Source: a virus (lineage: Duplodnaviria; Heunggongvirae; Uroviricota; Caudoviricetes). Taken from it: DNA of 18,507 nucleotides. A program made the translations under genes and the position numbers. Below the pieces are notes generated by a model. The model worked only from the letters and a program-made list of their open reading frames with translations, had not been told where the DNA came from and did not search any database. This document shows positions 1-17,300 of this stretch, one piece after another. How positions within the stretch are numbered: the stretch's first letter is position 1; each line of letters opens with the position of its first letter. The stretch is taken from positions 1 to 18,507 of IMG/VR virus record IMGVR_UViG_2778261154_000007; one strand, written 5' to 3'.

Positions 1-159
1 CCACGGGAATATCTGCGGCAGCGGGCTTGTAATGGGTTAAGTGATAACAGATGTCTGGAAATATAGGGGCAAATCCATCCGCGTGCTGATGTCGATTATC
101 TGTTTGCGCAGGTAATCGTTCATGAGCAACGTGTCGATACCACGCCTAACTGCGGCAAT

Positions 160-927: not shown

Positions 928-1002
928 AAAAATTCGTTGTCAGGATAAGGACAATCAATAAAGGACTTCTGTATGAGTCATACAGAAAGAACAGGATTTT
1001 AA

Positions 1003-2436
1003 ATGAATAAGAAATCGTTATGGAAGCTAATTCTGATATTAGCGATCCCATGTATTATTGGCTTTATGCCAGCTCCGGCAGGATTAAGCGAACTGGCGTG
1101 GGTGCTTTTTGGTATTTACCTGGCGGCCATTGTGGGGCTGGTTATCAAGCCTTTCCCGGAACCTGTCGTACTGTTAATTGCCGTTGCTGCCTCAATGGTG
1201 GTGGTCGGTAACTTATCCGACGGTGCGTTTAAAACCACCGCCGTATTAAGCGGTTACTCTTCAGGTACCACCTGGCTGGTGTTCTCGGCGTTTACCTTAA
1301 GCGCCGCATTTGTGACCACCGGTTTAGGTAAACGTATTGCCTATCTGCTGATTGGTAAAATCGGTAACACCACGCTGGGTCTGGGTTACGTTACGGTATT
1401 CCTCGATCTGGTACTGGCTCCGGCAACACCGTCTAACACCGCGCGTGCGGGCGGCATTGTGTTACCGATCATCAACAGCGTGGCGGTGGCTTTGGGGTCC
1501 GAACCGGAAAAAAGTCCGCGTCGTGTCGGACATTACCTGATGATGTCCATTTACATGGTCACCAAAACCACCAGCTATATGTTCTTTACCGCAATGGCGG
1601 GGAACATTCTGGCGCTGAAAATGATCAACGACATTCTGCACCTGCAAATTAGCTGGGGTGGATGGGCGCTGGCAGCCGGATTGCCGGGCATCATTATGCT
1701 GCTGGTCACCCCGCTGGTGATTTACACCATGTATCCACCAGAAATTAAGAAGGTGGATAACAAAACCATCGCTAAAGCGGGCCTTGCCGAACTAGGACCG
1801 ATGAAAATCCGCGAAAAAATGCTGCTCGGTGTCTTTGTGCTGGCGCTGCTGGGCTGGATTTTCAGTAAGTCTCTGGGGGTTGATGAATCCACCGTGGCAA
1901 TCGTTGTTATGGCAACCATGCTGCTGCTGGGTATCGTTACCTGGGAAGACGTGGTTAAAAATAAAGGCGGCTGGAATACCTTAATCTGGTACGGCGGTAT
2001 TATCGGCTTAAGCTCCTTATTATCGAAAGTTAAATTCTTCGAATGGTTAGCTGAAGTCTTTAAAAATAACCTGGCATTTGATGGTCACGGTAACGTTGCT
2101 TTCTTCGTTATTATTTTCCTCAGCATTATCGTGCGTTATTTCTTCGCTTCCGGTAGTGCCTATATCGTTGCTATGTTACCGGTATTTGCCATGCTGGCGA
2201 ACGTCTCCGGCGCACCGTTAATGTTAACCGCGCTGGCACTGTTGTTCTCCAACTCCTATGGCGGCATGGTTACTCACTATGGCGGCGCGGCAGGTCCGGT
2301 CATCTTTGGCGTGGGTTATAACGATATTAAATCCTGGTGGTTGGTCGGTGCGGTACTGACGATATTAACCTTCCTGGTGCATATCACCCTCGGCGTGTGG
2401 TGGTGGAATATGCTGATCGGCTGGAACATGCTGTAA
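1003..2436 (+). CDS. ybhI: DASS-family (divalent anion:sodium symporter-like) inner membrane transporter
   Basis: 477-aa ORF, highly hydrophobic with many predicted TM helices; position between ybhH-like and ybhJ-like genes. Confidence 0.8.
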   Translation: MNKKSLWKLILILAIPCIIGFMPAPAGLSELAWVLFGIYLAAIVGLVIKPFPEPVVLLIAVAASMVVVGNLSDGAFKTTAVLSGYSSGTTWLVFSAFTLSAAFVTTGLGKRIAYLLIGKIGNTTLGLGYVTVFLDLVLAPATPSNTARAGGIVLPIINSVAVALGSEPEKSPRRVGHYLMMSIYMVTKTTSYMFFTAMAGNILALKMINDILHLQISWGGWALAAGLPGIIMLLVTPLVIYTMYPPEIKKVDNKTIAKAGLAELGPMKIREKMLLGVFVLALLGWIFSKSLGVDESTVAIVVMATMLLLGIVTWEDVVKNKGGWNTLIWYGGIIGLSSLLSKVKFFEWLAEVFKNNLAFDGHGNVAFFVIIFLSIIVRYFFASGSAYIVAMLPVFAMLANVSGAPLMLTALALLFSNSYGGMVTHYGGAAGPVIFGVGYNDIKSWWLVGAVLTILTFLVHITLGVWWWNMLIGWNML

Positions 2437-2580
2437 ATATACTCGTCATACTTCAAGTTGCATGTGCTGCGTTTGCGTTCGCTCACCCCAGTCACTTACT
2501 TATGTAAGCTCCTGGGGATTCACTCACTTGTCGCCTTCCTGCAACTCGAATTATTTAGAGTATATCCATTTATTATCTTT

Positions 2581-2602
2581 CTGCGCACTTCACGGTGCGC
2601 AG
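2581..2602 (+). promoter_or_regulatory. Perfect 8-bp inverted repeat (CTGCGCAC-N6-GTGCGCAG) just upstream of the ybhJ-like start
   Basis: Read directly: ctgcgcac ttcacg gtgcgcag. No following T-tract, so more likely an operator or RNA structure than an intrinsic terminator. Confidence 0.3.
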
Positions 2603-2618
2603 ATATCTGGAGCATTTG

Positions 2619-4880
2619 ATGATCAAGTTATCTGAAAAAGGCGTGTTTCTCGCCAGTAATAACGAAATAATTGCCGAAGAACATTTCACCGGCGAAATTA
2701 AAAAAGAAGAAGCCAAAAAAGGCACTATTGCCTGGTCTATTCTCTCTTCTCATAATACGTCCGGAAATATGGATAAACTTAAAATTAAGTTTGATTCATT
2801 AGCCTCTCACGATATTACCTTTGTTGGTATTGTACAGACCGCTAAAGCGTCCGGAATGGAACGTTTCCCGCTGCCGTATGTGCTGACCAACTGCCATAAC
2901 TCACTCTGCGCCGTCGGCGGCACCATTAACGGTGATGACCATGTTTTTGGTTTATCGGCAGCTCAGCGTTATGGCGGTATTTTTGTGCCTCCGCATATTG
3001 CGGTCATCCATCAATATATGCGTGAGATGATGGCAGGCGGCGGCAAAATGATCCTCGGGTCAGACAGCCACACCCGTTACGGTGCATTAGGGACAATGGC
3101 AGTCGGTGAGGGCGGCGGTGAGTTGGTAAAACAGCTGCTTAATGACACCTGGGATATCGACTATCCGGGAGTTGTTGCGGTGCATCTGACCGGAAAACCA
3201 GCGCCGTATGTGGGGCCGCAGGATGTGGCGCTGGCTATCATCGGTGCCGTGTTCAAAAACGGCTACGTCAAAAACAAAGTGATGGAATTCGTAGGTCCCG
3301 GTGTTGCTGCGCTCTCTACCGATTTCCGTAACAGCGTTGACGTTATGACCACTGAAACGACCTGTTTAAGTTCTGTCTGGCAAACCGATGAAGAAGTCCA
3401 TAACTGGCTGGCGCTGCACGGTCGCGGCCAGGATTACTGCCAGCTTAACCCTCAACCGATGGCGTACTACGATGGCTGCATCAGCGTTGATTTAAGCGCC
3501 ATCAAACCAATGATTGCGCTGCCGTTCCACCCGAGCAACGTGTATGAAATCGACACACTGAACCAGAACCTGACCGACATTCTGCGTGAGATTGAAATTG
3601 AGTCCGAACGCGTGGCGCACGGTAAAGCCAAACTCTCGCTGCTGGATAAAGTGGAAAATGGTCGCCTGAAAGTGCAGCAGGGGATTATCGCGGGCTGTTC
3701 TGGCGGTAACTACGAAAACGTCATCGCGGCGGCGAATGCACTGCGCGGTCAATCCTGTGGCAATGACACCTTCTCGCTGGCAGTTTACCCGTCATCACAG
3801 CCGGTGTTTATGGATCTCGCCAAAAAAGGTGTGGTAGCAGATTTGATTGGCGCAGGCGCAATCATCAGAACCGCGTTCTGCGGCCCATGCTTTGGCGCGG
3901 GCGATACGCCAATCAACAACGGATTAAGTATTCGCCACACCACGCGCAACTTCCCGAACCGCGAAGGCTCTAAGCCAGCTAATGGGCAGATGTCAGCGGT
4001 GGCGTTGATGGACGCTCGTTCTATCGCTGCGACTGCGGCAAACGGTGGCTATTTAACCTCTGCCAGCGAACTTGATTGCTGGGACAACGTGCCGGAGTAC
4101 GCCTTCGATGTAACGCCGTATAAAAACCGTGTTTATCAGGGCTTTGTGAAAGGGGCAACTCAGCAACCGCTGATTTACGGACCGAACATTAAAGACTGGC
4201 CGGAATTGGGTGCGCTGACTGACAATATCGTCCTGAAAGTGTGCTCGAAGATCCTCGACGAAGTGACCACCACCGACGAACTGATTCCTTCCGGTGAAAC
4301 CTCTTCTTATCGTTCAAATCCGATTGGTCTGGCGGAGTTTACCCTGTCACGCCGCGATCCCGGTTATGTTGGCAGAAGTAAAGCGACTGCTGAGCTGGAA
4401 AATCAGCGTCTGGCGGGGAATGTCAGCGAGCTGACAGAGGTGTTTGCGCGCATTAAGCAGATTGCTGGTCAGGAGCATATTGATCCGCTGCAAACTGAAA
4501 TTGGCAGCATGGTATATGCGGTGAAACCAGGCGATGGTTCTGCGCGTGAACAGGCGGCGAGCTGCCAGCGTGTGATTGGCGGTCTGGCGAATATTGCCGA
4601 AGAGTACGCGACTAAACGCTACCGTTCTAACGTCATCAACTGGGGGATGTTACCGCTGCAGATGGCGGAAGTGCCAACCTTTGAAGTGGGGGATTACATT
4701 TACATCCCTGGCATTAAAGCGGCGCTGGATAATCCGGGTACGACGTTTAAAGGTTATGTGATCCATGAAGATGCGCCGGTAACGGAAATTACGCTCTATA
4801 TGGAAAGTCTGACTGCTGAAGAGCGCGAGATTATCAAGGCGGGTAGTTTGATTAACTTCAATAAAAACCGTCAGATGTAA
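2619..4880 (+). CDS. ybhJ: Aconitase-family hydratase/dehydratase (753 aa)
   Basis: Track ORF begins at GTG 2595, but ATG 2619 is preceded by GGAG (2608-2611) at good spacing and gives 753 aa. Glycine- and cysteine-containing motifs (GSDSHT, GCSGGN, CGPCFG) are typical of aconitase-family enzymes. Confidence 0.75.
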
Positions 4881-4892
4881 AAAGCGCCATGT

Positions 4893-5006
<114 letters not shown>

Positions 5007-5020
5007 ATAGTTAATTGCTC

Positions 5021-6304
5021 TTACTTCTTCGCCTCTGCAACCACTTTACTACCCACGCCGCGGTTATTGTATTCCCACATGCGGTTGTAGTTAGTGTCAT
5101 TCAGATTGCGCTGTATTTCGTCGTTATCATCTACGCTGCCGGTATTACCCGCAAACGGACGATTAGAGATCACCGCATCGGCCCACGGTTTAGCCGTGTT
5201 AAAACCTTCGTTGATGGCGCTATCACGGATCACCACCTGACCGTTGGTATTGGCATCAACATCCAGCGAGCGGCCCAGTTGCGCCACACCATCACCGAAA
5301 GCATTGAAACGGCTGTTTACGGCGAGGAAACCGTAGTAAATGTTGGACAGCGTAGCCGGTGCAAACACATACGCTTCTTGCTGAGTACGTGAGTTCACCA
5401 CGCGGAATTCGGTGTTATCGAACACCACTGCGCCGCGACCAGAAACGATATCCACATCCCCTTCAATGTAGCTGTTGGTCACCAGCGTACGCGGCTGACG
5501 ATTCGTTTCCAGACGGTTCTGCACACCGCTGTTGGTGACAAAGAAGGTGTTCTGACGACCGAGAATGTTAACGTTGTTAATCTGTACCTGGTCACCATCA
5601 GTACGCAGTGCCACCGCCGGATGGTTACCTGCATCTACGCTATCGCCCAGCGTGTTTTCGATGGTCAGATTTTGCAGTTGCAGGCCATTGTTTTGTGACC
5701 AGAAGACCGCAGAGCAGAGAACACCGATACTGTCGCTGCGTTTGCTCTGGCAGCTATCGTACATATACCACGCTGGTTTACCTGGCATATATTTGCCGCG
5801 CGGGTTGACGTCGTGACGCCAGTCGGCAGGGCTCATGCCACCATCAAGGGAAAGCCCAATCTTCACATCAATCGGTTTTTCACCTGTACCGTACAGAGTA
5901 ATTCCACCCGGAGCGGCAGGGACATATACCGTTCCCTGATACTCACCAGGCATCACGGCAATATACTGGCGCTTGTTGGTACGCTTGATAATTGCCGCAT
6001 CTACCGCCGCCTGAATCGTGGTATGCGTTACACCTTGAGTGCCCGCCGGGCCGACAACAAAGTCAGGTTGCGCAGGCAGGGTAATCGGGGAAGGATTCCA
6101 CGCTGCAGCACCTGGTGTCAGGGATGCAAAATAGTGTTGAGCATCGAAATTCTGCGCTTCTTTTGCCGACAGAATCGGGCGAGAAGAGGTACCAGGCGCG
6201 GTTTGATCAGAAGGACGTTGATCGGGCGGGGTTGAGCTACAGGCGGTCAGCGTCACGCCAAAAGCCAATGCCAGCGCCAGACGGGAAACTGAAAATGTGT
6301 TCAC
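5021..6304 (-). CDS. ybhC: Outer-membrane lipoprotein of the pectinesterase-like / acyl-CoA thioesterase family (427 aa)
   Basis: N-terminal lipoprotein signal with lipobox LTAC (MNTFSVSRLALALAFGVTLTACSS); 427 aa; immediately adjacent to the lambda attB core, as expected for ybhC. Confidence 0.8.
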   Translation of the reverse strand: MNTFSVSRLALALAFGVTLTACSSTPPDQRPSDQTAPGTSSRPILSAKEAQNFDAQHYFASLTPGAAAWNPSPITLPAQPDFVVGPAGTQGVTHTTIQAAVDAAIIKRTNKRQYIAVMPGEYQGTVYVPAAPGGITLYGTGEKPIDVKIGLSLDGGMSPADWRHDVNPRGKYMPGKPAWYMYDSCQSKRSDSIGVLCSAVFWSQNNGLQLQNLTIENTLGDSVDAGNHPAVALRTDGDQVQINNVNILGRQNTFFVTNSGVQNRLETNRQPRTLVTNSYIEGDVDIVSGRGAVVFDNTEFRVVNSRTQQEAYVFAPATLSNIYYGFLAVNSRFNAFGDGVAQLGRSLDVDANTNGQVVIRDSAINEGFNTAKPWADAVISNRPFAGNTGSVDDNDEIQRNLNDTNYNRMWEYNNRGVGSKVVAEAKK

Positions 6305-6340
6305 AGGTTGCTCCGGGCTATGAAATAGAAAAATGAATCC

Positions 6341-6438
6341 GTTGAAGCCTGCTTTTTTATACTAAGTTGGCATTATAAAAAAGCATTGCTTATCAATTTG
6401 TTGCAACGAACAGGTCATTATCAGTCAAAATAAAATCA
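6341..6438. other. Prophage left attachment site attL (host B arm, core GCTTTTTTATACTAA at 6351-6365, phage P' arm with Int arm-type/IHF region)
   Basis: The 15-bp lambda att core is read directly. Downstream sequence gttggcattataaaaaagcattgcttatcaatttgttgcaacgaacaggtcattatcagtcaaaataaaatcattatttg matches the lambda attP P' arm as recalled. Confidence 0.85.
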
Positions 6439-7509
6439 TTATTTGATTTCAATTTTGTCCCACTCCCTGCCTCTGTCATCACGATACTGTGATGCCATGG
6501 TGTCCGACTTGTGCCCGAGAAGATGTTGAGCAAACTTATCGCTTATCTGCTTCTCATAGAGTCTTGCAGACAAACTGCGCAACTCGTGAAAGGTAGGTGG
6601 ATCCCCTTCGAAGGAAAGACCTGATGCTTTTCGTGCGCGCATAAAATACCTTGATACTGTGCCGGATGAAAGCGGTTCACGACGAGTAGATGCAATTATG
6701 GTTTCTCCGCCAAGAATCTCTTTGCATTTATCAAGTGTTTCCTTCATTGATATCCCGAGAGCATCAACATGCAATGTTGTAGGGATGGCAATTTTTACGC
6801 CTGTTTTGCTTTGCTCGACATAAAGATATCCATCTACGATATCAGACCACTTCATTTCGCATAAATCACCAACTCGTTGCCCGGTAACAACAGCCAGTTC
6901 CATTGCAAGTCTGAGCCAACATGGTGATGATTCTGCTGCTTGATAAATTTTCAGGTATTCGTCAGCCGTAAGTCTTGATCTCCTTACCTCTGATTTTGCT
7001 GCGCGAGTGGCAGCGACCGGGTTTGTTGTTATATGGCCTTCAGCTATTGCCTCTCGGAATGCATCGCTCAGTGTTGATCTGATTAACTTGGCTGATGCCG
7101 CCTTGCCCTCGTCTATGTATCCATTGAGCATTGCCGCAATTTCTTTTGTGGTGATGTCTTCAAGTGGAGCATCAGGCAGCCCCCTCCTTATTGCTTTAAT
7201 TTTGCTCATGTAATTTATGAGTGTCTTCTGCTTGATTCCTCTGCTGGCGAGGATTTTTTCGTAGCGATCAAGCCATGAATGTAACGTAACAGAATTATCA
7301 CTGTTGATTCTCGCTGTCAGAGGCTTGTGTTTGTGTCCTGAAAATAACTCAATGTTGGCCTGTATAGCTTCAGTGATTGCGATTCGCCTGTCTCGGCCTA
7401 ATCCAAACTCTTTACCCGTCCTTGGGTCCCTGTAGCAGTAATATCCATTGTTTCTTATATAAAGGTTAGGGGGTAAATCCCGGCGCTCATGACTTCGCCT
7501 TCTTCCCAT
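6439..7509 (-). CDS. int: Lambda-type tyrosine integrase Int (356 aa)
   Basis: Translation MGRRRSHERRDLPPNLYIRNNGYYCYRDPRTGKEFGLGRDRR... matches lambda Int over its length; 356 aa; adjacent to attL. Confidence 0.95.
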   Translation of the reverse strand: MGRRRSHERRDLPPNLYIRNNGYYCYRDPRTGKEFGLGRDRRIAITEAIQANIELFSGHKHKPLTARINSDNSVTLHSWLDRYEKILASRGIKQKTLINYMSKIKAIRRGLPDAPLEDITTKEIAAMLNGYIDEGKAASAKLIRSTLSDAFREAIAEGHITTNPVAATRAAKSEVRRSRLTADEYLKIYQAAESSPCWLRLAMELAVVTGQRVGDLCEMKWSDIVDGYLYVEQSKTGVKIAIPTTLHVDALGISMKETLDKCKEILGGETIIASTRREPLSSGTVSRYFMRARKASGLSFEGDPPTFHELRSLSARLYEKQISDKFAQHLLGHKSDTMASQYRDDRGREWDKIEIK

Positions 7510-7705
7510 TTCTGATCCTCTTCAAAAGGCTACCTGTTACTGGTCGATTTAAGTCAACCTTTACCGCTGATTCGTGGAACAAATACTCTCTTCCATCCTT
7601 AACCGGAGGAGGGAATATCCTGCACTCGCGTACCCATCGACGAACTGTTTCAAGGCTCCTTGGGCGTCGCTGGCGTGCGTTCCACTCCTGAAGTGTCAAG
7701 TACAT
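7487..7705 (-). CDS. xis: Excisionase Xis (72 aa)
   Basis: Translation MYLTLQEWNARQRRPRSLETVRRWVRECRIFPPPVKDGREYLFHESAVKVDLNRPVTGSLLKRIRNGKKAKS matches lambda Xis; 23-nt overlap with int as in lambda. Confidence 0.95.
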   Translation of the reverse strand: MYLTLQEWNARQRRPRSLETVRRWVRECRIFPPPVKDGREYLFHESAVKVDLNRPVTGSLLKRIRNGKKAKS

Positions 7706-7759
7706 CGCAAAGTCTCCGCAATTACTCGCAAGGGAGCGAGTATTGGTTTATTTTCTCCA

Positions 7760-7783
7760 ACAAAAAAGGAGCCGAAGCTCCTT
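7760..7783 (-). terminator. Candidate rho-independent terminator downstream of the 207-aa AntA-like gene
   Basis: On the minus strand: GGAGCTTCGGCTCC hairpin (plus 7768-7781) followed by TTTTTTG. Confidence 0.5.
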
Positions 7784-7789
7784 TGATGA

Positions 7790-8413
7790 TTAAAATTCGA
7801 ATTGTCTCGCCCGAAGGCTTTTCAGCATTGGTTTTGCCCGTTCGAAAAGGGCGCTTGCTTGGTCAAGTCGTGTCGCCTCCCTTAGCAGTACATCTCTGTT
7901 TTTCGTCACCGTGTAAAAAGTTTCAAACGCGATGTCATACAGCTTGCTCGTGTATGATGAGTTCAGTTCCTTCAATATCGGGTACAGACGTTTGCAGATG
8001 TCCTGCGCATTCTCCATCTGTACCTGCATATAGCAAAGGAGGATGATTTCTTCGTCTGTGAATTGCTGCGCTGGTTGCATGCTGCGAAGTTTCTTTTCGC
8101 ACTCGATGAAGTATCGGCGTATCTGGCGGCCTTTTTCGTTACGCTCGACCATCGCCGTTTCTTTGGCTGTATCGAGGGTGAGGTGATAGTCTTTGCTACG
8201 GCGATCGCCTCCTCGACCTTTGATTTCCCGATTTGGGGAAACCAAAATATAGTCCTGATTTTCAACGAAACCATATTCAGCAATGCGTTCTGTAATCCAC
8301 GATGCAAAGCGTTTACCTACCCCAAGAAAAGTATGTAAATCACGGGCATTAACGAGAAGAGTTGTTTCGTTGGATATAGTGCCGTTGAATACGGGGATGA
8401 GTTGACTGGTCAT
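7790..8413 (-). CDS. Phage antirepressor-like protein (AntA/AntB N-terminal domain-like), 207 aa
   Basis: N-terminal segment ISNETTLLVNARDLHTFLGVGKRFASWITERIAEYGFVENQDYI resembles AntA/AntB-type antirepressor domains; located in the b2-proximal accessory region next to xis. Confidence 0.55.
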   Translation of the reverse strand: MTSQLIPVFNGTISNETTLLVNARDLHTFLGVGKRFASWITERIAEYGFVENQDYILVSPNREIKGRGGDRRSKDYHLTLDTAKETAMVERNEKGRQIRRYFIECEKKLRSMQPAQQFTDEEIILLCYMQVQMENAQDICKRLYPILKELNSSYTSKLYDIAFETFYTVTKNRDVLLREATRLDQASALFERAKPMLKSLRARQFEF

Positions 8414-8734
8414 TTTTATGTCCTTTGCATTTGTTCAGATAGCCCTGTGTTCAGCAGGGCGGTCAGGTACTTGAACACCGTGCAAAGTCGGCCCGTATCC
8501 TTAACCTTTCGGCTGTTTTTCGGTATACGCGCTACCCGACCATATCTGAAAAATGGACATAAAAAATCCGCATGACTGACGGGTGCGGTTTCCGCTTTGC
8601 AAGGTGTGTTCAGCACCATGAAGCGGAATATAGCCCCGTTAATGCGGTGTTGTCAAATCATGTAGGCCTTATCTTGCTGTAAGCCGCGCCATTCGGGCTT
8701 TTCCCCACATTTGGGGAAAACTATCTTGTCAAAA

Positions 8735-9517
8735 TCATGCAGCCTTTCGCCCTCCTTCGATGAGTTCCTCTATTTTGTGCACTCCAGCCTCGTTGTACCG
8801 AAATGTTTCAACCTGCTTGTCATTGTGCGCCGATTTGTCGATGAACCACTTCCCGTACTTTTCTGTTTTGAGCATGTAGGTGTTGGCTATGCGTCCTACC
8901 TTGTTGGCTGAAATACCGTAGCGCTGGCCGACTTCCGTAGCAGAGTAGTAGTGCTCTGAGATAGCTGGCAGAGGTACAACATCGCGACCAACAATCGGGT
9001 TGAACACTCCAGCTACTGCTGCCTGCTTTGATTCTGAGGACAGATTCGGGAACATATTCACCAGTCGATCCGCCACGTTCAAAGCTATTTCCATGGCTCG
9101 CGCACGGTCTAGGCTACTTTCTGGTTGCGGTACTGGTTGAGGATGGTTGGCAACCTTTTCGCGCTGATTGAAGTAGCCGTCCTCCAGTTTTTCGAACACG
9201 TCCCATGCCTGATCCGTTTCGAGCATCTTCGCGTGACGGGCGGCTCCGCGCTCTGTCCAGAGGATGAGGTGGCGTGCATTTGGGGCAATTTTCACAAAGT
9301 AGTTTAAAGCTACTTTGTGTTTTAGCGCGCGCAGCTCGTCACCAACGACCTTGTAGAAGTGTACCCCCTCAACAAAGCGCGACTTGTTTTCATGATGGTT
9401 TTGCCGGATGCGCACAACATCCGTTCCGTACAACTGCGCCAATAGTTCGCTGGTGATGACGTTGGTTTGTTTGTAGGTGATTGGTGAAAGTGTTTCAACA
9501 GAAATTTGAGCATTCAT
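8735..9517 (-). CDS. Phage regulatory/antirepressor-family protein (ORF6N/Rha-like N-terminal domain), 260 aa
   Basis: N-terminal TSELLAQLYGTDVVRIRQNHHENKSRFVEGVHFYKV resembles ORF6N/Rha-type domains; the C-terminal half is unrelated. Confidence 0.5.
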   Translation of the reverse strand: MNAQISVETLSPITYKQTNVITSELLAQLYGTDVVRIRQNHHENKSRFVEGVHFYKVVGDELRALKHKVALNYFVKIAPNARHLILWTERGAARHAKMLETDQAWDVFEKLEDGYFNQREKVANHPQPVPQPESSLDRARAMEIALNVADRLVNMFPNLSSESKQAAVAGVFNPIVGRDVVPLPAISEHYYSATEVGQRYGISANKVGRIANTYMLKTEKYGKWFIDKSAHNDKQVETFRYNEAGVHKIEELIEGGRKAA

Positions 9518-9641
9518 AGCGTCCTCACATTGGCTTTTGCATTGAAGAAAGCTTGACGGTGAACTCGCCGTAACGAGTTCAGATAAAAGAAATCCCCGCG
9601 AGTGCGAGGATTGTTATTTACCTTTGACGGCAAGTTGCAGG

Positions 9642-10172
9642 TTAGCCACGGTTAACCTCCTGCGGCGGTTCTGGTAGCTGCATCCAGTGGGTTACCTCTT
9701 TGAGATACAGGTCTTCGCCATCACCGTCATCCCAAGTGGGATTGCCATCATTAAACCAGTCGCCATATACGCCGACCTGAGTGTTGGGGATGTTTGGTGG
9801 GTAGTTGTTTTTAAAGTCAGCTGCTAACACATAGCATTGTCGCTCTCCCATTTCTGGCATTCGCTCACTACAGCTTATCCAGGCATCCGGAGTTACCGGC
9901 ACTGGCTGGGCGGTATAAAGCGGTGTTATATCTGCCCGAAAATTACATGCTTTATGCAGCCGCACCCACCGTTCGACTTCTGCTTTGTCAGAATACATAC
10001 CAGTGAACGTGTTATATTCACGGTCAATTTGCGTGAAGGTTACCTTCCACGCCACCGGCTCTGCTGTCAGCGATGCCAGAGCAATTTCATAAGCACGGCG
10101 TTCAACATTGTCTCGCACATCCAAACTGCTGATACGCTCTTTGATTTCTTTAATCAGTTCTTTGTCGTTCAC
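9642..10172 (-). CDS. DUF551-like phage protein, 176 aa (GTG start)
   Basis: C-terminal W-rich segment WISCSERMPE...VTHWMQLPEPP resembles the DUF551 domain common in lambdoid early-left regions. Confidence 0.5.
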   Translation of the reverse strand: MNDKELIKEIKERISSLDVRDNVERRAYEIALASLTAEPVAWKVTFTQIDREYNTFTGMYSDKAEVERWVRLHKACNFRADITPLYTAQPVPVTPDAWISCSERMPEMGERQCYVLAADFKNNYPPNIPNTQVGVYGDWFNDGNPTWDDGDGEDLYLKEVTHWMQLPEPPQEVNRG

Positions 10173-10252
10173 TTATGCCTCCGATTCCCGGATGTCACCC
10201 AAATCAACGCTACAATGCCAACCAGTGCAACGAGCGCAAAACTATCAAGCAT
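10169..10252 (-). CDS. Putative 27-aa hydrophobic peptide ([27 protein letters not shown])
   Basis: ATG preceded by AAGAGG; single predicted TM helix; its TGA overlaps the GTG start of the downstream gene (GTGA) and its ATG overlaps the stop of the upstream gene. Confidence 0.3.
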   Translation of the reverse strand: MLDSFALVALVGIVALIWVTSGNRRHK

Positions 10253-10748
10253 CTCCAACCTCTTTAACGGTAACTGTCTGTGCCTCCAGTTCTGCTATGC
10301 GCTTTTCTGAGGCTTCAAGTAACGCCTGCTTATCGCGTAGCGCTTCTTCCAGTTCAGCAACATGGCATTCACTATCAATAAGGTTGTTCTCTGCTGCTTC
10401 CAGCTCAACACGCAACTTCCCTACCGTTAGCGCAATTTCCTCGTTCTCCTGATCGCGGCTTTTGATGTATTGCAGGTTTCTTTCCCGTTCATCCAGTAGT
10501 GCCAGCGCAACATTTGGATTAAAAGCAGCAATAAATTCAGCGTTTGCATAAGCCTGAACATCTGTTTCAACCAGGCAGTTAACATGACATTCCGCAATCA
10601 CACCACCGGGTTCTCCTTTCCATTTTTGACAAACAAAAACTCCTGTTATATTCCCATGCTGATTGCCCGATGTATGCCCTACGATGTAGCTCCCTTTCGT
10701 TGCCTTTTCTGCCGCATCACGCAGTGCCTGGTAATTAATTTTGCTCAC
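10245..10748 (-). CDS. Ead/Ea22-like phage protein with C-terminal coiled coil
   Basis: Start placed at internal GTG 10748, preceded by AAAGGAGG at 6 nt, rather than the track GTG at 10769. Sequence [18 protein letters not shown]... resembles ead/Ea22-like family; C-terminal heptad-rich region. Confidence 0.5.
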
Positions 10749-10912
10749 TGTTTGCCTCCTTTGCGCCACATCGCATTCAGATATTTGTTTTGATTTACTG
10801 ACGGAAAAGAATTTCTCTTAAGCAATTCCTCTCTCGATGGCATTGGCTTTACGCGTTGGCGAATAATCATTTCTGCCGGAAGAATGCCGGGATTGTATGC
10901 AAGTCCTCTCAT
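10745..10912 (-). CDS. Putative 55-aa small ORF, translationally coupled at both ends
   Basis: ATG overlaps the upstream stop (ATGA) and its TGA overlaps the downstream GTG start (GTGA); the Ea22-like RBS AGGAGG lies inside it. Confidence 0.3.
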
Positions 10913-11199
10913 GATTTACTCTCCACGAACTGGTCAACGGCCATGCTAAGTGACACACCTAAAGTCTCGATATGCTGCTGAATATCCTGTAGCGTCCGCG
11001 CCTGAGATAACAGAATTTCACGGTTGCATAACTCTTTAACCAGATGCTCAAACTTGCTGTAATAACCGATACGGCTTAGTGTTTCTTTCCCTGCATTCTC
11101 ACCTTCTTTGATAATTCCTCTTTCACTAAGAATCAGGTCGTGTTTGGTTCCGGTAATAACGTATTTTCCGAGGTCGATGTTTAGCTTCATTGTTTTCAT
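10909..11199 (-). CDS. Hypothetical phage protein (96 aa)
   Basis: Start moved to ATG at 11199 ([11 protein letters not shown]...), preceded by GAGGAA at 6 nt; the longer track ORF lacks an RBS. Confidence 0.45.
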
Positions 11200-11209
11200 T
11201 GTTAATTCC

Positions 11210-11503
11210 TCAGTCATTACTGATAGCGCCATAGCGTGAGCGGTAATTACGCAGGCGCGGGTCAATTTCAGGGAAGTGGGTATATGTGGCTTTGCGGAAT
11301 GGTCGGATTGATGTCTGGTAAATTCGCTCTCGTTCTTCTTTCTCTGCAAGCCATATACAGTGGCGAAATTCCTTTTCCTCTTTCGTTTCCTGCGGTAGCG
11401 ACATTATCCGATCGTAGTTTTTTCTGAATTTATCCAGCACCTCCGATACGGAATTGCCGGAACAGCGGCGCGGGTCATCCGCACCATACAGAGGCGCTGG
11501 CAT
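11210..11503 (-). CDS. Hypothetical phage protein (97 aa), basic
   Basis: ORF in operon context between the Sak4 module and downstream small genes; weak RBS, start uncertain. Confidence 0.4.
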   Translation of the reverse strand: MPAPLYGADDPRRCSGNSVSEVLDKFRKNYDRIMSLPQETKEEKEFRHCIWLAEKEERERIYQTSIRPFRKATYTHFPEIDPRLRNYRSRYGAISND

Positions 11504-11526
11504 AATGGGAGCCTTATTTTCAGTAA

Positions 11527-12114
11527 TCAGAAAGGAGGGTAATCGTTCTGGCTGTAACCATAATCATCTGCATGATTCTGGCTTACGTTTTTAGCGCGAT
11601 TGTCTTTATCTTTGAGGCTGGCAACCATGTTGGCGATAGTTTCTGGTTGCTTGCCTTCCGACTTTTCTTTAAGGGTTTGACCTGTTTGTGCAATAAACGG
11701 GATGCGTATTTCCATCTGGTAGCTGTCTGCGCCAGTCTTTTTGTTTGTGGTTAATACTTTCTGGAGCACTAACCCGATTTTCTTTCCATGAAATTCAGGA
11801 GCAACAAATTTACTGGCGGAAACCATATGTTGCGTTAACTGCTTAATCCCAACACACCCCATCATGGCATGAACGACGTTTGCACCAAACTTGTTTTCCG
11901 TTCCGTCATTTTTCTGAACACAAACGCTAAGATATTGGATTTTACGTCCGTCGTCGGATTCGCCAGAAAGCTCAATAAATTTTGCGCCTTTTTCTGATTG
12001 CTTTAGTTCTGCTTCAGTAATGGTAATGATATGAGCGCCAGTTTCGTTAATAAAACCACCTTGCCCTGCGGTCAGTGCTGCTTCTTCGTTATAAGTAAAA
12101 ATCACGTTGCTCAT
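11527..12114 (-). CDS. Sak4-associated phage protein (possibly DUF669-family recombination accessory protein), 195 aa
   Basis: Start overlaps the Sak4-like stop by 4 nt (translational coupling); the position and size fit the partner gene of Sak4-type modules. Confidence 0.5.
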   Translation of the reverse strand: MSNVIFTYNEEAALTAGQGGFINETGAHIITITEAELKQSEKGAKFIELSGESDDGRKIQYLSVCVQKNDGTENKFGANVVHAMMGCVGIKQLTQHMVSASKFVAPEFHGKKIGLVLQKVLTTNKKTGADSYQMEIRIPFIAQTGQTLKEKSEGKQPETIANMVASLKDKDNRAKNVSQNHADDYGYSQNDYPPF

Positions 12115-12791
12115 GCGGCGTTTTCCTTAATTTGATGAACATTATTGATGCCGTAGTAATCACAAACAGTGGCATCGACGAAAGAGAGATCGTTATCAAT
12201 CTCATTGGAGTCAAACATTCCCATTGGGGATTTAACAGTGTCTGCACCGTTGTTTTTCGTGGTGAAAAAGAACTGGTCATCACGGGTAAGGGTGCGAAGA
12301 ACTATAGTAAACATGCCTTCGACAGTGATTTTCTCGTCCAGCATTTTTCCTATAGTTTTCATTTTCACGCGCCCCATAGGGGTTTCTTCGGTGTGCGCAA
12401 GAAAATAGACTCTCAGGTCATCTGGCGCATCCTGTGCAGCCTTAATCACCTCCCATGCGTGGCGGCCTATCTCAGTAAATTTATCAAACGATTTTTCTTC
12501 TGAGCGGCGCATAAACTCATTGCTCATCACATACTGGAAGTCATCAACAATAACGATTCTTTTCCCGTATTCGTGAGCACGCTTAATTACGGCAACTATT
12601 ACGTCCCATTTATCAGTGGTAACTACGGTTCCTTTTTTTGCTCTGGCATCCCATGCCAGCCAGTCTTTTGATTTAAATGGCAGCGGCTTGCCTATTGGTT
12701 TTATAAGTATTGCTTCCTCTGGATTGATATTTCTCATGCTGGTTGATTTTCCGGTGCCAGACTCACCGAGTATTAATGTCGCAGTTCCCAT
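12111..12791 (-). CDS. Sak4-like RecA-fold P-loop ATPase (phage single-strand annealing/recombination protein), 226 aa
   Basis: N-terminal Walker A GESGTGKS and Walker B-like hhhhDD (RIVIVDD); size and position in the early-left operon where lambda carries exo/bet. Confidence 0.7.
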   Translation of the reverse strand: MGTATLILGESGTGKSTSMRNINPEEAILIKPIGKPLPFKSKDWLAWDARAKKGTVVTTDKWDVIVAVIKRAHEYGKRIVIVDDFQYVMSNEFMRRSEEKSFDKFTEIGRHAWEVIKAAQDAPDDLRVYFLAHTEETPMGRVKMKTIGKMLDEKITVEGMFTIVLRTLTRDDQFFFTTKNNGADTVKSPMGMFDSNEIDNDLSFVDATVCDYYGINNVHQIKENAA

Positions 12792-12799
12792 AATTTGCC

Positions 12800-12988
12800 T
12801 CAGAATGGTAATTCGGATGGGGAGGAAAGAAACTCGCGCTCATTCATGCGCTCTCTTTGTGCCTGCCATAAACAAAGTTGTTTCTTTGATTTATCTCCCG
12901 CTTTACGCCAGTAACGAGCCTCAGCAATGTGATATTCTCTTTTTAATCGACTTAACTCTGGAGTTTTCGCCAGCTCTACCGGAATCAT
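12800..12988 (-). CDS. Hypothetical small phage protein (62 aa)
   Basis: Start set to second ATG (MIPVELAK...), which is preceded by GGAGG at 5 nt; overlaps the end of the kil-like ORF. Confidence 0.35.
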   Translation of the reverse strand: MIPVELAKTPELSRLKREYHIAEARYWRKAGDKSKKQLCLWQAQRERMNEREFLSSPSELPF

Positions 12989-13098
12989 TTTGACCTCCAT
13001 TTTTTATAGGCTTCGACGGCTTCACGAAACATCTTTTCATCGCCAATAAAAGTGGCGATAGTGAATTTAGTCTGGATAGCCATAAGTGTTTTATCCAT
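12985..13098 (-). CDS. kil: Kil-like small protein (37 aa) at the kil position downstream of cIII
   Basis: ATG overlaps the cIII stop region; translation MDKTLMAIQTKFTIATFIGDEKMFREAVEAYKKWRSK; position and overlap as for lambda kil. Not in the track as a separate ORF (below 60 aa). Confidence 0.45.
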   Translation of the reverse strand: MDKTLMAIQTKFTIATFIGDEKMFREAVEAYKKWRSK

Positions 13099-13231
13099 TT
13101 TTGGGAACTCCTGGCTGATTAAGTACGTCGATGAGTCGTTTCCATCCGTCACGTAATTTACGGGTGATTCGTTCAAGTAAAGATTCGGAAGGGCAGCCAG
13201 CAACAGGCCACCCTGCAATGGCATATTGCAT
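13091..13231 (-). CDS. cIII: cIII (FtsH inhibitor / CII stabiliser), 46 aa
   Basis: Manual translation of the minus strand: MQYAIAGWPVAGCPSESLLERITRKLRDGWKRLIDVLNQPGVPKNG, matching lambda CIII through its conserved central helix; RBS AGGAG upstream. Not in the track (below 60 aa). Confidence 0.8.
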   Translation of the reverse strand: MQYAIAGWPVAGCPSESLLERITRKLRDGWKRLIDVLNQPGVPKNG

Positions 13232-13264
13232 GGTGTGCTCCTTATTTACGCTTTAAATTGCTCC

Positions 13265-13292
13265 GTGTATTCACTCGTTGGAATGAATACAC
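13265..13292 (-). promoter_or_regulatory. 9-bp stem hairpin (GTGTATTCA-N10-TGAATACAC) in the leader upstream of cIII
   Basis: Read directly; no T-tract follows on either strand, so not an intrinsic terminator. Lies between the 207-aa gene stop and the cIII RBS. Confidence 0.35.
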
Positions 13293-13336
13293 AGTGCAGT
13301 GTTTATTCTGTTGTTTATGCCAAAAATAAAGACCAA

Positions 13337-13960
13337 CTATGCGGCCTCGGAAGGAAGTCCAATCATCTTATTCAAATCTTCTACCCGTAAAGCAGGAAGT
13401 GCTGTACTTGCTTTATCTGCTTCTTTTGGTAGCAATTCTTTGCTTTCAGGCCAAACTTCAATAAGTCGCTTAACTGTTGTGACTGAGTTCAAAGCAGCCC
13501 ATACATTTGATTCGATATCCTTTTTCCTGGCTTTAAGTTTTTGTTGCAATGCGCAGATTTCATCAAACCTTTTTGTTATTTCGTGTTCTGCGCTAAACAT
13601 GCATTTATCTCTGGTCGGAGTAGGGAGCAATATATCTTCGCCGTTGCCGTCTTTCCCATATGAATACCATCCAACCCTTCTGCCAGATACAGTCAGATAA
13701 ATTGAAGTAGAACGAACATCGCATGAGTAAAATGAACATCCCATCTTTTCAAGTTCTTCACTTATAGCTACCAACTTGGATGATAACTGATCCACTTCCT
13801 CAGTTTTCTTCTTCCCGCCAAACGCAACAACTCTGGCGTCAAGTGCAAGCTGGTTCTTTAGCTTTGTTACTTCTTCAAGTTCAGTGAACACCCCGGACTT
13901 AATTAAAGCGTTGCGTGCTATTACTTCTTTTATTCTCGTTGTTAAGCGGATTGATGACAT
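13337..13960 (-). CDS. Hypothetical protein of unknown function (207 aa) in the N-cIII accessory slot
   Basis: Start moved to ATG 13960 (MSSIRLTT...), preceded by GAGG; no TM segments, predicted helical/coiled regions; no motif I recognise. Confidence 0.55.
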   Translation of the reverse strand: MSSIRLTTRIKEVIARNALIKSGVFTELEEVTKLKNQLALDARVVAFGGKKKTEEVDQLSSKLVAISEELEKMGCSFYSCDVRSTSIYLTVSGRRVGWYSYGKDGNGEDILLPTPTRDKCMFSAEHEITKRFDEICALQQKLKARKKDIESNVWAALNSVTTVKRLIEVWPESKELLPKEADKASTALPALRVEDLNKMIGLPSEAA

Positions 13961-13971
13961 ATTAATTCCTC

Positions 13972-14298
13972 TCAAATAAGTGGTTTGCTGCCTGATTTCA
14001 TTTTCTGGCGACCAACACAAGTCACACCCATTTCACTGCGTGGCTTGCTGTACCATGTGCGCTGATTCTTGCGCTCAATACGTTGCAGGTTGCTTTCAAT
14101 CTGTTCGTGGTATTCAGCCAGCACCGTAAGGTCTATCGGATTCAGTGCGCTTTCTACTCGTGATTTCGGTTTGCGATTCAGCGAGAGAATAGGGCGGTTA
14201 ACTGGTTTTGCGCTTACCCCAACCAACAGGGGATTTGCTGCTTTCCATTTAGCCTGTTTCTCTGCGCGACGTTCGCGGCGGCGTGTTTGTACATCCAT
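13972..14298 (-). CDS. N: Antitermination protein N (108 aa) with arginine-rich motif
   Basis: Translation from ATG 14298 (RBS AGGAG): MDVQTRRRERRAEKQAKWKAANPLLVGVSAKPVNRPILSLNRKPKSRVESALNPIDLTVLAEYHEQIESNLQRIERKNQRTWYSKP... matches lambda N; the track ORF extends spuriously upstream. Confidence 0.9.
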   Translation of the reverse strand: MDVQTRRRERRAEKQAKWKAANPLLVGVSAKPVNRPILSLNRKPKSRVESALNPIDLTVLAEYHEQIESNLQRIERKNQRTWYSKPRSEMGVTCVGRQKMKSGSKPLI

Positions 14299-14455
14299 CT
14301 GGATTCTCCTGTCAGTTAGCTTTGGTTGTGTGTGGGAGTCGTAGTCCTGAACGAAAACACCCCGCAATGGCACATTGGCAGCTAATCCGGATTCGCACTT
14401 CCGGCCAATGCTTCGTTTCGTATCACACACACCAAAGCCTTCTGCTTTGAATGCT

Positions 14456-14485
14456 GCCCTTCTTCAGGGCTTAATTTTTAAGAGC
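14456..14485 (-). promoter_or_regulatory. nutL (boxB GCCCTGAAGAAGGGC; boxA-like TGCTCTTA)
   Basis: Minus-strand sequence gctcttaaaaattaagccctgaagaagggc; boxB is a perfect hairpin identical to lambda nutL boxB. Confidence 0.8.
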
Positions 14486-14518
14486 ATCACCTTTATGGTG
14501 GTCAGTGCGTCCTGTTGA

Positions 14519-14590
14519 TGTGCTTAGCATCACCGCCAGTGGTATTTATGTCAACACCGCCAGAGATAATTTATCACCGCAGATGGTTAT
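14519..14590 (-). promoter_or_regulatory. pL promoter with oL1-oL2-oL3 operators (lambda immunity specificity)
   Basis: Three 17-bp sites: cATCACCGCCAGTGGTA (14528-14544), CAACACCGCCAGAGATA (14552-14568), TATCACCGCAGATGGTT (14572-14588); -35 TTGACA and -10 GATGCT on the minus strand with 17-bp spacing. Confidence 0.8.
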
Positions 14591-14737
14591 CTGTATGTTT
14601 TTTATATAGATTTATTTTTTGCCGGGGTGTGTTGCTGGGGTTGGTGATCGAGAGATCAGAATTGCACTGTTTAGTGAGTTGTATCTATTAATTTTAAAAT
14701 AAATACAATTGGTTATGTATTTTTTTGGGGGCGTGAG

Positions 14738-14765
14738 GCAAAGAAAACCCGGCGCTGAGGCCGGG
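14738..14765 (-). terminator. Candidate intrinsic terminator downstream of the rexB-like gene (tIMM-like)
   Basis: Hairpin CCCGGC-GCTGAG-GCCGGG (14748-14765) followed on the minus strand by GTTTTCTTTG. Confidence 0.5.
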
Positions 14766-14768
14766 TTG

Positions 14769-15206
14769 CTATTTGTTTGAGAATTTTAGAAGTTGAAAAA
14801 GTATGATGCTTATATGCATCATTGATGAAGCTGACAGGCCGATCGATAAGGATGGCAACAAGGCAATTGGTTGCTTACTGGTGGCCATTAAAAACAAACC
14901 CATAAAAAAAACAATGCCAAGTTCCGCAAAGGTCAGTGCATACAGAATGATGACAGATGTCATATATCCGTAAGCCTTTACTTTTTGCATGTTTTTTCCT
15001 CTGATGCCGATGACGAATGTCAACGCGGCAATGAGTATTGCGATAGTAGTCCCTGCATATGAAGATATAGCTGCGCCCAGCGCGTCTCTGTGCTCGGTGA
15101 ACGAAATTGATGAGGCAACGCTACGGAAAATGCAGTAGACGACAATAGTTAAAAGTATTGGTAAAACGAATAGCAATACGCCGGGAACGATCCTGTGCTC
15201 TCTCAT
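14769..15206 (-). CDS. rexB: RexB-like integral membrane protein (145 aa, four predicted TM helices)
   Basis: Occupies the rexB position (between pL/oL and rexA, same strand as cI). Four hydrophobic segments (LLFVLPILLTIVVYCIF; TTIAILIAALTFVIGI; YMTSVIILYALTFAELGIVFFMGLFLMA; LSIGLSASSMMHISIILFQLL). Size is close to lambda RexB (about 144 aa). Confidence 0.6.
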   Translation of the reverse strand: MREHRIVPGVLLFVLPILLTIVVYCIFRSVASSISFTEHRDALGAAISSYAGTTIAILIAALTFVIGIRGKNMQKVKAYGYMTSVIILYALTFAELGIVFFMGLFLMATSKQPIALLPSLSIGLSASSMMHISIILFQLLKFSNK

Positions 15207-15236
15207 GCTTCCTCCATCACCCTTAGGTATTCACTC

Positions 15237-16067: not shown

Positions 16068-16198
16068 ATATCAATCCGTTATATCTGGCGTAAGTCATCA
16101 TATCGTTAAAGTACATAAAATTTCTTTTTGCGTTGATGTAATGAATGGCAGCTTGAAAACCTGCTGGTAATCCTACGCCCGGAGCACTTTTCCATCCA

Positions 16199-16915
<717 letters not shown>

Positions 16916-16919
16916 TTAA

Positions 16920-17000
16920 ATCTATCACCGCAAGGGATAAATATCTAACACCGTGCGTGTTGACCATTTTACCTCTAGCGGTGATAATGGTTGCATGTAC
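16920..17000. promoter_or_regulatory. oR3-oR2-oR1 operators with divergent pRM and pR promoters
   Basis: TATCACCGCAAGGGATA (oR3, 16923-16939), TAACACCGTGCGTGTTG (oR2, 16946-16962), TACCTCTAGCGGTGATA (oR1, 16970-16986); pR -35 TTGACC and -10 GATAAT; cro RBS TAAGGAGG. Confidence 0.85.
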
Positions 17001-17003
17001 TAA

Positions 17004-17213
<210 letters not shown>

Positions 17214-17224
17214 ATAACCCCGCT

Positions 17225-17300
17225 CTTACACATTCCAGCCCTGAAAAAGGGCATCAAATTAAACCACACCTATGGTGTATGTATTTATTTGCATGCATTC
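17225..17300 (+). promoter_or_regulatory. nutR (boxA CGCTCTTAC, boxB GCCCTGAAAAAGGGC) followed by the tR1 region
   Basis: ccccgctcttacacattccagccctgaaaaagggc read directly; boxB is a perfect hairpin. Confidence 0.75.

Follow-up and report, generated by a model that had tools for sequence, protein, structure and literature searches.

The antirepressor of phages P1 and P7 is governed from the immI region, where the small RNA c4 is annotated as an antisense RNA that binds sites on the icd-ant mRNA; in P1, its binding to two of these sites, a2 and b2, represses icd-ant translation. The P1 c4 RNA is processed from its leader by RNase P, and a C1 operator lies at the c4 promoter. The ant gene of P22 is under different immI elements. 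Another structured RNA, sRNA-Xcc1 (Rfam RF02221), was first described in an integron cassette of Xanthomonas campestris. Here, we describe a cassette with the layout of P1 immI that is built around an RNA of the sRNA-Xcc1 family. This cassette lies in an 18,507-nucleotide stretch of viral DNA (record IMGVR_UViG_2778261154_000007 of IMG/VR, positions 1 to 18,507; hereafter the window), on the minus strand, between two genes for antirepressor-type proteins that we call gene A and gene B. The initial annotation had drawn attention to these two genes and overlooked the gap between them, where the regulatory RNA cassette is the most informative feature of the region.

Several related elements have been described. 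IsrK of the Salmonella prophage Gifsy-1 is a short terminated RNA; its read-through form encodes the antirepressor-like protein AnrP, and IsrK activates translation of AnrP in trans (PMC4825925). The Ant protein of phage phi24B has its C-terminus in common with P22 Ant, is encoded near int and xis, and is weakly expressed in lysogens. Deletion of phi24B ant left superinfection unchanged, and the authors proposed from pR' reporter assays that Ant promotes efficient induction (PMC3064807). Motifs of the c4 and c4-a1b1 types have been reported from Proteobacteria and phages (Weinberg et al., PMC2864571). The sRNA-Xcc1 RNA has been treated as a trans-acting, virulence-linked small RNA (sRNA; PMC2996969, PMC12189769). 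It has also been found, without explanation, upstream of symE and in the same orientation in Xanthomonas integron cassettes (10.1101/2025.06.18.660453), and in an APSE phage, where an ORF6N gene follows it (10.1101/2020.03.17.996009). Our literature search, which was incomplete and does not prove absence, returned no paper that links sRNA-Xcc1 to c4-type control.

The gap between genes A and B measures 321 base pairs (bp). In order on the minus strand it holds a promoter, a leader, a hairpin with a U-run, the structured RNA, its targets, and the ribosome-binding site of gene A:

8735-9517, minus strand: gene B, 260 amino acids (aa); ORF6N N-terminal domain, C-terminal half without class
8627-8656, minus strand: sigma-70 promoter; TTGACA, 18-nucleotide (nt) spacer, TATATT; 11 of 12 consensus positions
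8595-8613, minus strand: leader target copies; a1-like CUGAACA (8607-8613) and b1-like UGCAAAG (8595-8601)
8561-8588, minus strand: hairpin CCGCA...UGCGG and U-run; terminator-like, conserved in all cassette types
8453-8541, minus strand: structured small RNA; closing helix of 8533-8541 with 8461-8469, b' loop CUUUGCA (8481-8487), a' junction GGUGUUCA (8472-8479)
8432-8438, minus strand: a2-like target CUGAACA; complement of the RNA junction GGUGUUCA, which is single-stranded
8423-8429, minus strand: b2-like target UGCAAAG; overlaps AAGGA (8421-8425), the Shine-Dalgarno sequence of gene A, whose ATG (8413) follows 8 nt downstream
7790-8413, minus strand: gene A, 207 aa; AntA N-terminal and P22_AR_C C-terminal domain; payload of the RNA-controlled cassette
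7765-7784, minus strand: terminator-like hairpin and T-run after gene A and before xis; 8-bp stem AAAGGAGCTTCGGCTCCTTT, then TTTGTTGG

The cassette promoter is the sole promoter-like site in 7400-10300, and transcription from it is expected to start near 8620. Its -35 element TTGACA is kept in nearly all cassette variants that we read, including that of phage 933W. With this promoter at one end and a terminator-like hairpin after gene A at the other, the cassette is a transcription unit complete in itself, situated within the pL operon of a lambda-immunity prophage. In the RNA, the last hairpin has the loop CUUUGCA, whose complement UGCAAAG occurs at the Shine-Dalgarno sequence and in the leader; the junction GGUGUUCA is complementary to (C)UGAACA(C). 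For the 23-nt loop region, the predicted duplex is more stable with the leader (-23.8 kcal/mol) than with the ribosome-binding region (-15.2 kcal/mol). An extra copy of CUGAACA (8448-8454) makes up the loop of a small hairpin (8442-8460). A 67-codon open reading frame (ORF) across the RNA (8416-8619) matched no family, and in the RefSeq E. coli genomes listed the cassette is left without any annotation.

Two candidates for additional control of the locus were discarded. SOS control of the Gifsy type was rejected because neither gene has a LexA box nearby: no site of the form CTGTN8ACAG with at most one mismatch occurs in 8414-8734 or 9518-9641, and the window as a whole contains seven such sites compared with 5.7 expected. 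The promoter spacer includes a lambda operator half-site, CAACACCGC (8644-8652, minus strand), which has 79 near-matches in the window and is not evidence of CI control. The same 9-mer recurs at 14552-14560; the half-site consensus is matched perfectly at 14572-14580 and nearly at 14528-14536.

The RNA at 8453-8541 belongs to the sRNA-Xcc1 family, with a score of 68.3 bits against a gathering score of 53 (E = 1e-11) and coverage of model positions 1-87 of 87. Our own covariance model scores it at 44.4 bits. The fold was examined by aligning 105 matches to the covariance model and naming a four-helix structure from the alignment; the model used for the fit was a partial one, which favours helices 2-4 and does not include helix 1. 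Paired cells amount to 85.3%, compared with 62.2% after shuffling and 37-54% when the partners are slid by 1-3 columns. Likewise, the covariation score of 0.553 exceeds that of shuffled alignments (0.164; the observed value was reached in 0 of 500) and of slid partners (0.07-0.15). In the 57 sequences that share one register, pairing is kept in 55-57 of 57 at almost all positions of helices 1, 2 and 4, with three to six types of base pair. Helix 1 is out of register in 45% of the sequences, with a paired percentage down to 73.8%. Such register shifts had masked the closing helix when the RNAs were aligned with MAFFT and folded with RNAalifold, an approach that we replaced by the covariance-model alignment. 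The sequences inspected often have UAUG or AAUG ahead of the closing helix, and behind it a short C-rich tail that ends in CCA or CCC (alignment A4, columns 97-100). This tail resembles the 3' end recognised by RNase P in the precursors of tRNAs and of P1 c4.

The loop of the RNA and its two target sites change together. Relatives of gene A at 80 viral loci have 47 distinct upstream regions with 12 loop sequences, which we treat as specificity types. Over 6-8 nt, the loop is perfectly complementary to the leader site in all 12 types, and in 11 of them also to the site next to the Shine-Dalgarno sequence. Examples of loop and target are CUUUCGA with UCGAAAG (locus L007), CUUGCUG with CAGCAAG, CUGUUUGU with ACAAACAG, and CCUAUAUU with AAUAUAGG. 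The longest complement at the ribosome-binding site is 7.25 for cognate versus 3.99 for non-cognate combinations, and that at the leader 7.5 versus 5.2 (permutation p <= 1e-5 for each). Viral contigs were also scanned independently for the conserved RNA core, which yielded 120 loci with 98 unique RNAs, of which 96 were scored. In about three quarters of these (73 of 96), the sequence downstream of the RNA contains a complement of the loop that is 6 nt or longer, mostly at a distance of 25-35 nt from the RNA and 6-11 nt ahead of a start codon; a second copy of the complement usually lies 70-120 nt upstream. The second RNA segment behaves in the same manner: among 57 distinct RNAs of this set, changes in the junction are matched by changes in the sequence immediately 5' of the first target (5.74 cognate versus 4.02 non-cognate, p <= 5e-5), and both segments co-vary with the leader (p <= 5e-5). 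We conclude that the pairing between RNA and targets is very probably a real regulatory interaction that controls gene A.

The resemblance to immI of P1 and P7 extends to the order of the parts. In both cases, a single strand carries the promoter, the a1 and b1 copies, a CCGCA...UGCGG hairpin with a U-run, the RNA, the a2 and b2 sites, and a ribosome-binding site. In P1 as here, the RNA measures about 80 nt, consists of several helices and exposes two segments; b' precedes a' in the RNA, a precedes b in the targets, and the second target covers a ribosome-binding site, that of icd in P1 and that of gene A here. The two RNA segments are complementary to the targets, a relation which is kept by compensatory change in the cassettes studied here. 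As annotated for P1 c4, the RNA targets the transcript in which it is itself contained, and the downstream gene is named as an antirepressor. The window RNA differs in that it belongs to sRNA-Xcc1 and not to Rfam C4, that it resides in an integrated prophage of lambda immunity, where the cassette is placed in the pL operon beside xis, and that at least 12 specificity types are seen for the window-type cassette. The isrK, orf45 and anrP region of Gifsy-1 would share with the window a short terminated RNA followed by a read-through mRNA for an antirepressor-like protein, with translation dependent on RNA-RNA pairing. In contrast to the repression that we consider here, the published effect of IsrK is activation via an upstream ORF, and a c4-like repressor RNA was not described (PMC4825925). 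A further difference is that the window leader has no Rfam isrK match. Gene A carries P22_AR_C, a domain named for the P22 antirepressor, with which phi24B Ant is described as having its C-terminus in common. Compared with the literature on sRNA-Xcc1 as a trans-acting sRNA, our data indicate control of the adjacent downstream gene.

Cassettes with the same type of RNA are found in front of diverse antirepressor-type genes. Forty-five representative proteins encoded after such RNAs gave 40 Pfam matches to antirepressor-type N-terminal modules: KilA-N (11), Rha (7), AntA (7), P22_AR_N (5), Bro-N (5) and ORF6N (5). AntA and ORF6N, the families of genes A and B, are both regular payloads of this RNA; in the window, the payload is gene A only. 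The sRNA-Xcc1 RNA lies directly upstream of ant in 933W and in phage Stx2a_WGPS6. The 933W cassette (L204, 3597-3850, minus strand) has the address CUUAUUUG / CAAAUAAG and sits between the attR core and ant, at the prophage end far from int; the RefSeq record of 933W annotates only the protein at this position. Rfam scans identified c4-a1b1 and C4 in P1, and isrK and C4 in place of Xcc1 upstream of a close AntA homologue (L071). In L071, L127 and L147, the isrK matches lie 20-30 nt upstream of the C4 matches, so that IsrK holds the position of the window leader (8620-8561). Tandem cassettes were observed at L127 (2422-3753), L147 (2349-3141), L093 (6652-7268) and L046 (2337-2958). In these arrays, isrK with C4 and sRNA-Xcc1 units are spaced 0.3-1.2 kb apart, sometimes with a truncated AntA ORF between them, and L127 and L147 contain both kinds. 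Inspection by eye of three pairs of cassettes from the same genome and of two tandem pairs gave addresses that all appeared to differ. The tandem arrays suggest recombination between cassettes at the conserved RNA scaffold; C4, isrK and sRNA-Xcc1 would seem to be parts or variants of one kind of module.

The genes on either side of the gap were identified by domain searches. Both ORFs are real and occupy the minus strand exactly where the initial annotation had placed them. Gene A, which had been read as AntA-like, matches Pfam AntA (PF08346; 95.2 bits, E = 3.6e-27, cut-off 27, residues 21-92) and in addition P22_AR_C (PF10548; 38.5 bits, E = 1.2e-9, cut-off 22.4, residues 115-178). Gene B had been labelled ORF6N/Rha-like. 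The first half of this label is borne out by a match to ORF6N (PF10543; 71.5 bits, E = 7.4e-20, cut-off 27.8, residues 12-98, profile positions 3-86 of 86), and the second half is not: Pfam gave no match to Phage_pRha (PF09669) at E <= 0.1, nor to Bro-N (PF02498) or KilA-C (PF03374). Residues ~125-260 of gene B belong to no Pfam family and are matched only by PHROGs families of unknown function. PHROGs assigns gene A to phrog_377 (E = 1.7e-94) and gene B to phrog_1726, both of them "anti-repressor" families, in agreement with Pfam that neither protein comes from an unrelated family. The C-terminal halves are unrelated, as had been proposed: the best BLASTP match between A and B has E = 0.066, and a clean profile-profile comparison returned a 44-column linker match with 67% probability. 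Because these comparisons are nearly empty, we consider that the N-terminal domains represent two different Pfam families without detectable mutual homology. A first profile comparison of A with B (100% probability) was dropped since two proteins with both ORF6N and P22_AR_C were present in both alignments. Searches of NCBIfam and of PDB sequences with both genes returned nothing useful and no solved relative by sequence, and BLASTP detected no similarity of P1 Ant1 to gene A or gene B. This finding at the level of the genes is correct but ordinary, and both proteins are already properly named by standard pipelines.

Homologues of gene A with 78-92% identity over the C-terminal 106 residues occur in 933W, VT2-Sakai and other Shiga toxin (Stx) phages, and gene A homologues are present on thousands of contigs. 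The structure model of gene A (mean predicted local distance difference test score, pLDDT, 43) was set aside as unusable. The AlphaFold model of gene B (mean pLDDT 74.5) consists of an N-terminal domain (1-115), a disordered linker of about 20 residues (119-134) and a helical C-terminal domain, the last ~70 residues of which (about 190-259) form a helix-turn-helix and a beta-hairpin. The best matches in a fold search were the winged helices of BldC, RacA, MerR and Xis at E = 0.13-1, with none at E <= 0.001. The model is suggestive of a C-terminal winged helix, and a role of gene B as a DNA-binding regulator is more likely than one as partner of gene A. In other proteins, the same C-terminal domain is joined to a Bro-N module (P0008) or to an N-terminus like that of P1 Ant (P0038), and common E. 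coli proteins such as P0021 combine the P22_AR_C domain of gene A with ORF6N. These fusions reflect the domain shuffling expected for antirepressor-type families. In P0038 (254 aa; compare L083, 3689-4732), the N-terminus TIDSQALLKMVNEARRLCGE resembles P1 Ant, and the gene B C-terminal domain stands where P1-type Ant has KilA-C.

Genes A and B do not form a fixed unit. Gene B is carried by an insertion or deletion (indel) with a hairpin of its own:

8727-9614, minus strand: indel module, 888 bp; carries gene B and the hairpin upstream of gene B
9591-9612, minus strand: terminator-like hairpin and T-run at the upstream edge of the gene B module

In the related viral loci L006, L060, L017 and L036, BLASTN aligns window 9695-9615, the end region of a DUF551 gene, next to 8726-8644, with about 6 nt between. 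L006 contains the same cassette of RNA and gene A without gene B, and in L030 gene B is present and is followed by a cassette of a different type. The stretch searched that contains both genes (7400-9700) is covered to at least 80% in only 3 of 5426 complete E. coli genomes; the whole A-B gap is covered in 78. The view that A and B are a conserved pair thus fails, because the gene B indel is absent from loci with the same gene A cassette. A similar pair is present in Stx2a_WGPS6. No promoter-like site lies between the 9591-9612 hairpin and gene B, which is probably expressed only by antiterminated pL transcription; gene B is a separately acquired, pL-dependent gene. The region upstream of gene B does not co-vary with the RNA loop. 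The sequence TGCAAAAG near the gene B ribosome-binding site was considered as a target of the RNA and rejected as chance, since it is unchanged in L030, where the RNA loop differs. The sequence UGCAAAAG at 9545-9552 (minus strand), about 20 nt before the start of gene B, is one base off the RNA target, and is the same in L030, so probably a chance match.

How may the cassette work? We consider it probable that, as a whole, it operates as a relative in function of P1/P7 immI, in which a c4-like antisense RNA represses translation of the antirepressor (Ant) encoded by gene A. By analogy to P1, this RNA most likely keeps gene A silent in the lysogen. The near-consensus promoter (8656-8627) would be active in the lysogen, and most transcripts would end at the hairpin and U-run (8588-8561) to give a leader RNA of ~60 nt that includes the target copies. 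Transcripts that read through would contain the structured RNA of 81-89 nt (8541-8453) and then the gene A mRNA. The two segments that the RNA exposes, CUUUGCA in the loop and GGUGUUCA in the junction, pair with UGCAAAG over the Shine-Dalgarno sequence and with CUGAACA just upstream, and co-vary with them. This contact would block ribosome binding and turn Ant off, in the way that c4 binding to a2 and b2 acts on icd-ant. The copy in the leader, as the better predicted partner, is probably a decoy that releases repression, comparable to IsrK of Gifsy-1; the activation of AnrP by IsrK in trans fits this role. After induction, N-antiterminated read-through from pL would produce target in excess of RNA, and Ant would be made. 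Ant might then inactivate CI-type repressors of its own or co-resident prophages and so reinforce induction. This last step, and with it the cross-induction of other prophages that the initial annotation had suggested, draws on family names, P22 Ant and the phi24B ant knock-out, and is the weakest; a CI-type repressor as the target of Ant is a possibility that we rate somewhat below an even bet. The many loop and target variants would make the cassettes of different phages blind to each other's RNA, and we lean slightly towards action of the RNA in trans with such immunity-like specificity.

Several observations weigh against this proposal. Homology to c4 is not demonstrated, because the window RNA has no match to Rfam C4 (RF01695, clan CL00128) in 7600-9800 and the leader (8561-8620) matches neither isrK (RF01394) nor c4-a1b1 (RF03163), each at E < 5; the same kind of search does recognise C4 in P1 and L071. 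An icd-like coupling ORF is lacking, as the target and Shine-Dalgarno sequence 8 nt from the ATG leave no room for one, and the payload combines AntA with P22_AR_C, compared with the KilA-C Ant of P1, to which it has no sequence similarity. The 8561-8588 hairpin has a 5-bp stem and an 11-nt loop, and its strength as a terminator is uncertain. In one specificity type (L046), the loop matches the ribosome-binding region only in part, and the b-site figures of the 57-RNA test come from a set pre-selected for the complement, of which the a-site and leader tests are independent. The CI protein of the prophage has an S24 self-cleavage domain, and an antirepressor is therefore unnecessary for SOS induction. 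Finally, RNA and targets could pair in cis only, and a stem that encloses the RNA could suffice to repress gene A by sequestering the Shine-Dalgarno sequence, without any action in trans.

These last two points lead to a leader that acts only in cis, in which RNA and complementary flanks of one transcript fold alternatively and thereby determine how gene A is translated or its mRNA processed; such a leader would involve neither a diffusible repressor nor specificity of the immunity type. The minimum free energy fold of 8400-8625 is indeed a long closing stem that surrounds the whole RNA and buries the Shine-Dalgarno sequence (z = -2.98): AUGUCC...UUCAGAUAU, directly 5' to the RNA, pairs with AUAUCUGAA...GGACAU in the area of the Shine-Dalgarno sequence. 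Co-variation of loop and site would be equally expected for pairing in cis. However, the enclosing stem is seen only in the RNA subtype of the window, where it is kept in L007 and L075 (three sequences, too few for a co-variation test); the commoner subtype forms a separate hairpin after the U-run. Moreover, c4 of P1 and P7, with the same layout, is annotated as an antisense RNA, IsrK works in trans (PMC4825925), and 6-8 exposed loop nucleotides on a conserved scaffold are typical of kissing contacts in trans. We therefore regard control in cis alone as unlikely.

A toxin/antitoxin-like or defence cassette is a still less probable explanation. Here, the downstream proteins would be harmful and the RNA a labile antidote, the loss of which, for example upon host shut-off by an infecting phage, would lead to prophage escape or abortive infection. 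The position of the same RNA family upstream of the toxin gene symE in Xanthomonas (10.1101/2025.06.18.660453) speaks for this idea, as do the presence in P1 immI of icd, a cell-division inhibitor, and the autonomy of the cassettes, which have their own promoter and terminator and form tandem arrays. Yet nearly all payloads among the 45 representatives are of the antirepressor type and not known toxins. The initial annotation implied that A and B are antirepressors which work as a pair under simple pL expression, without dedicated control. Their antirepressor-family domains, adjacency and common orientation agree with this view, and so does the similar pair in Stx2a_WGPS6, but it is already contradicted by the promoter in the gap, by the co-varying RNA there, which targets gene A only, and by the indel that removes gene B from loci with the same cassette. 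The pair is also rare (3 of 5426 genomes), and we consider this view highly improbable. We give even less credence to an sRNA that acts in trans on host (virulence) mRNAs and lies upstream of gene A by coincidence, as the literature on sRNA-Xcc1 (PMC2996969, PMC12189769) might suggest. A host target would hold the loop constant, whereas the variable loop follows the ribosome-binding site and leader of the adjacent gene in every lineage examined.

Positions 1-6350 of the window are a chromosome segment (ybhH, ybhI, ybhJ, ybhC), after which comes the prophage at the lambda attachment site. It is of the lambda-immunity type, integrated beside ybhC, and genes A and B lie inside its pL operon, in which all early-left genes are on the minus strand:

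16199-16912, minus strand: cI, with HTH_3 and Peptidase_S24 domains
Early-left region, minus strand: rexA and rexB
13972-14430, minus strand: ORF with the N36 peptide of N
13337-14020, minus strand: Nmad5 (nucleotide modification associated domain 5) gene, Pfam E = 5.4e-71, between the N-containing ORF and the cIII thermoregulator RNA
Early-left region, minus strand: kil
13186-13244, minus strand: lambda cIII thermoregulator RNA element (Rfam RF01804, 88.5 bits)
12111-12791, minus strand: AAA_24-domain gene
11210-11503, minus strand: P22 Abc2-like anti-RecBCD gene
10245-10769, minus strand: Ead/Ea22 gene
9642-10172, minus strand: DUF551 gene
7487-7705, minus strand: xis (Pfam Exc, E = 3.9e-41), directly after gene A
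6439-7509, minus strand: int, after xis

To our knowledge, lambda has no Nmad5 gene at the corresponding position of pL. At 11210-12791 (minus strand), the Abc2-like gene, a 195-aa ORF without assignment and the AAA_24 gene replace exo, bet and gam of lambda, all three of which are found in FDAARGOS_944, the closest relative of the prophage in E. coli. Among complete genomes, E. coli FDAARGOS_943 and FDAARGOS_944 come nearest, with 98.1% identity over 7400-9700; the A-B gap is 100% identical in FDAARGOS_943. Lambda aligns with the int-xis and immunity regions and gives no alignment across the stretch of genes A and B, consistent with the earlier remark that lambda has nothing comparable here. 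The placement of the two genes as "b2-proximal" was imprecise; they do adjoin xis, within the exo-xis part of the pL operon.

If the cassette acts as proposed, the antirepressor genes of many lambdoid phages, including 933W, a classic Shiga-toxin phage, would be silenced by a P1-type antisense RNA with a programmable address. On a tentative view that goes well beyond this locus, lambdoid and Stx prophages such as 933W may carry a second, RNA-encoded layer of immunity, made up of a decoy leader, a c4-like repressor RNA and an antirepressor mRNA, with an address of 6-8 nt and dozens of mutually blind specificities. The address might then set co-induction in polylysogens and hence the output of Shiga toxin, and sRNA-Xcc1 might be a general scaffold that also gates toxins such as SymE in integron cassettes. 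The mechanism proposed for the cassette would, if correct, make spontaneous induction, the cross-talk of co-resident prophages and the release of toxin accessible to mutation. It would also offer a plausible function for sRNA-Xcc1, an Rfam family that has been without known targets since 2010-2011.

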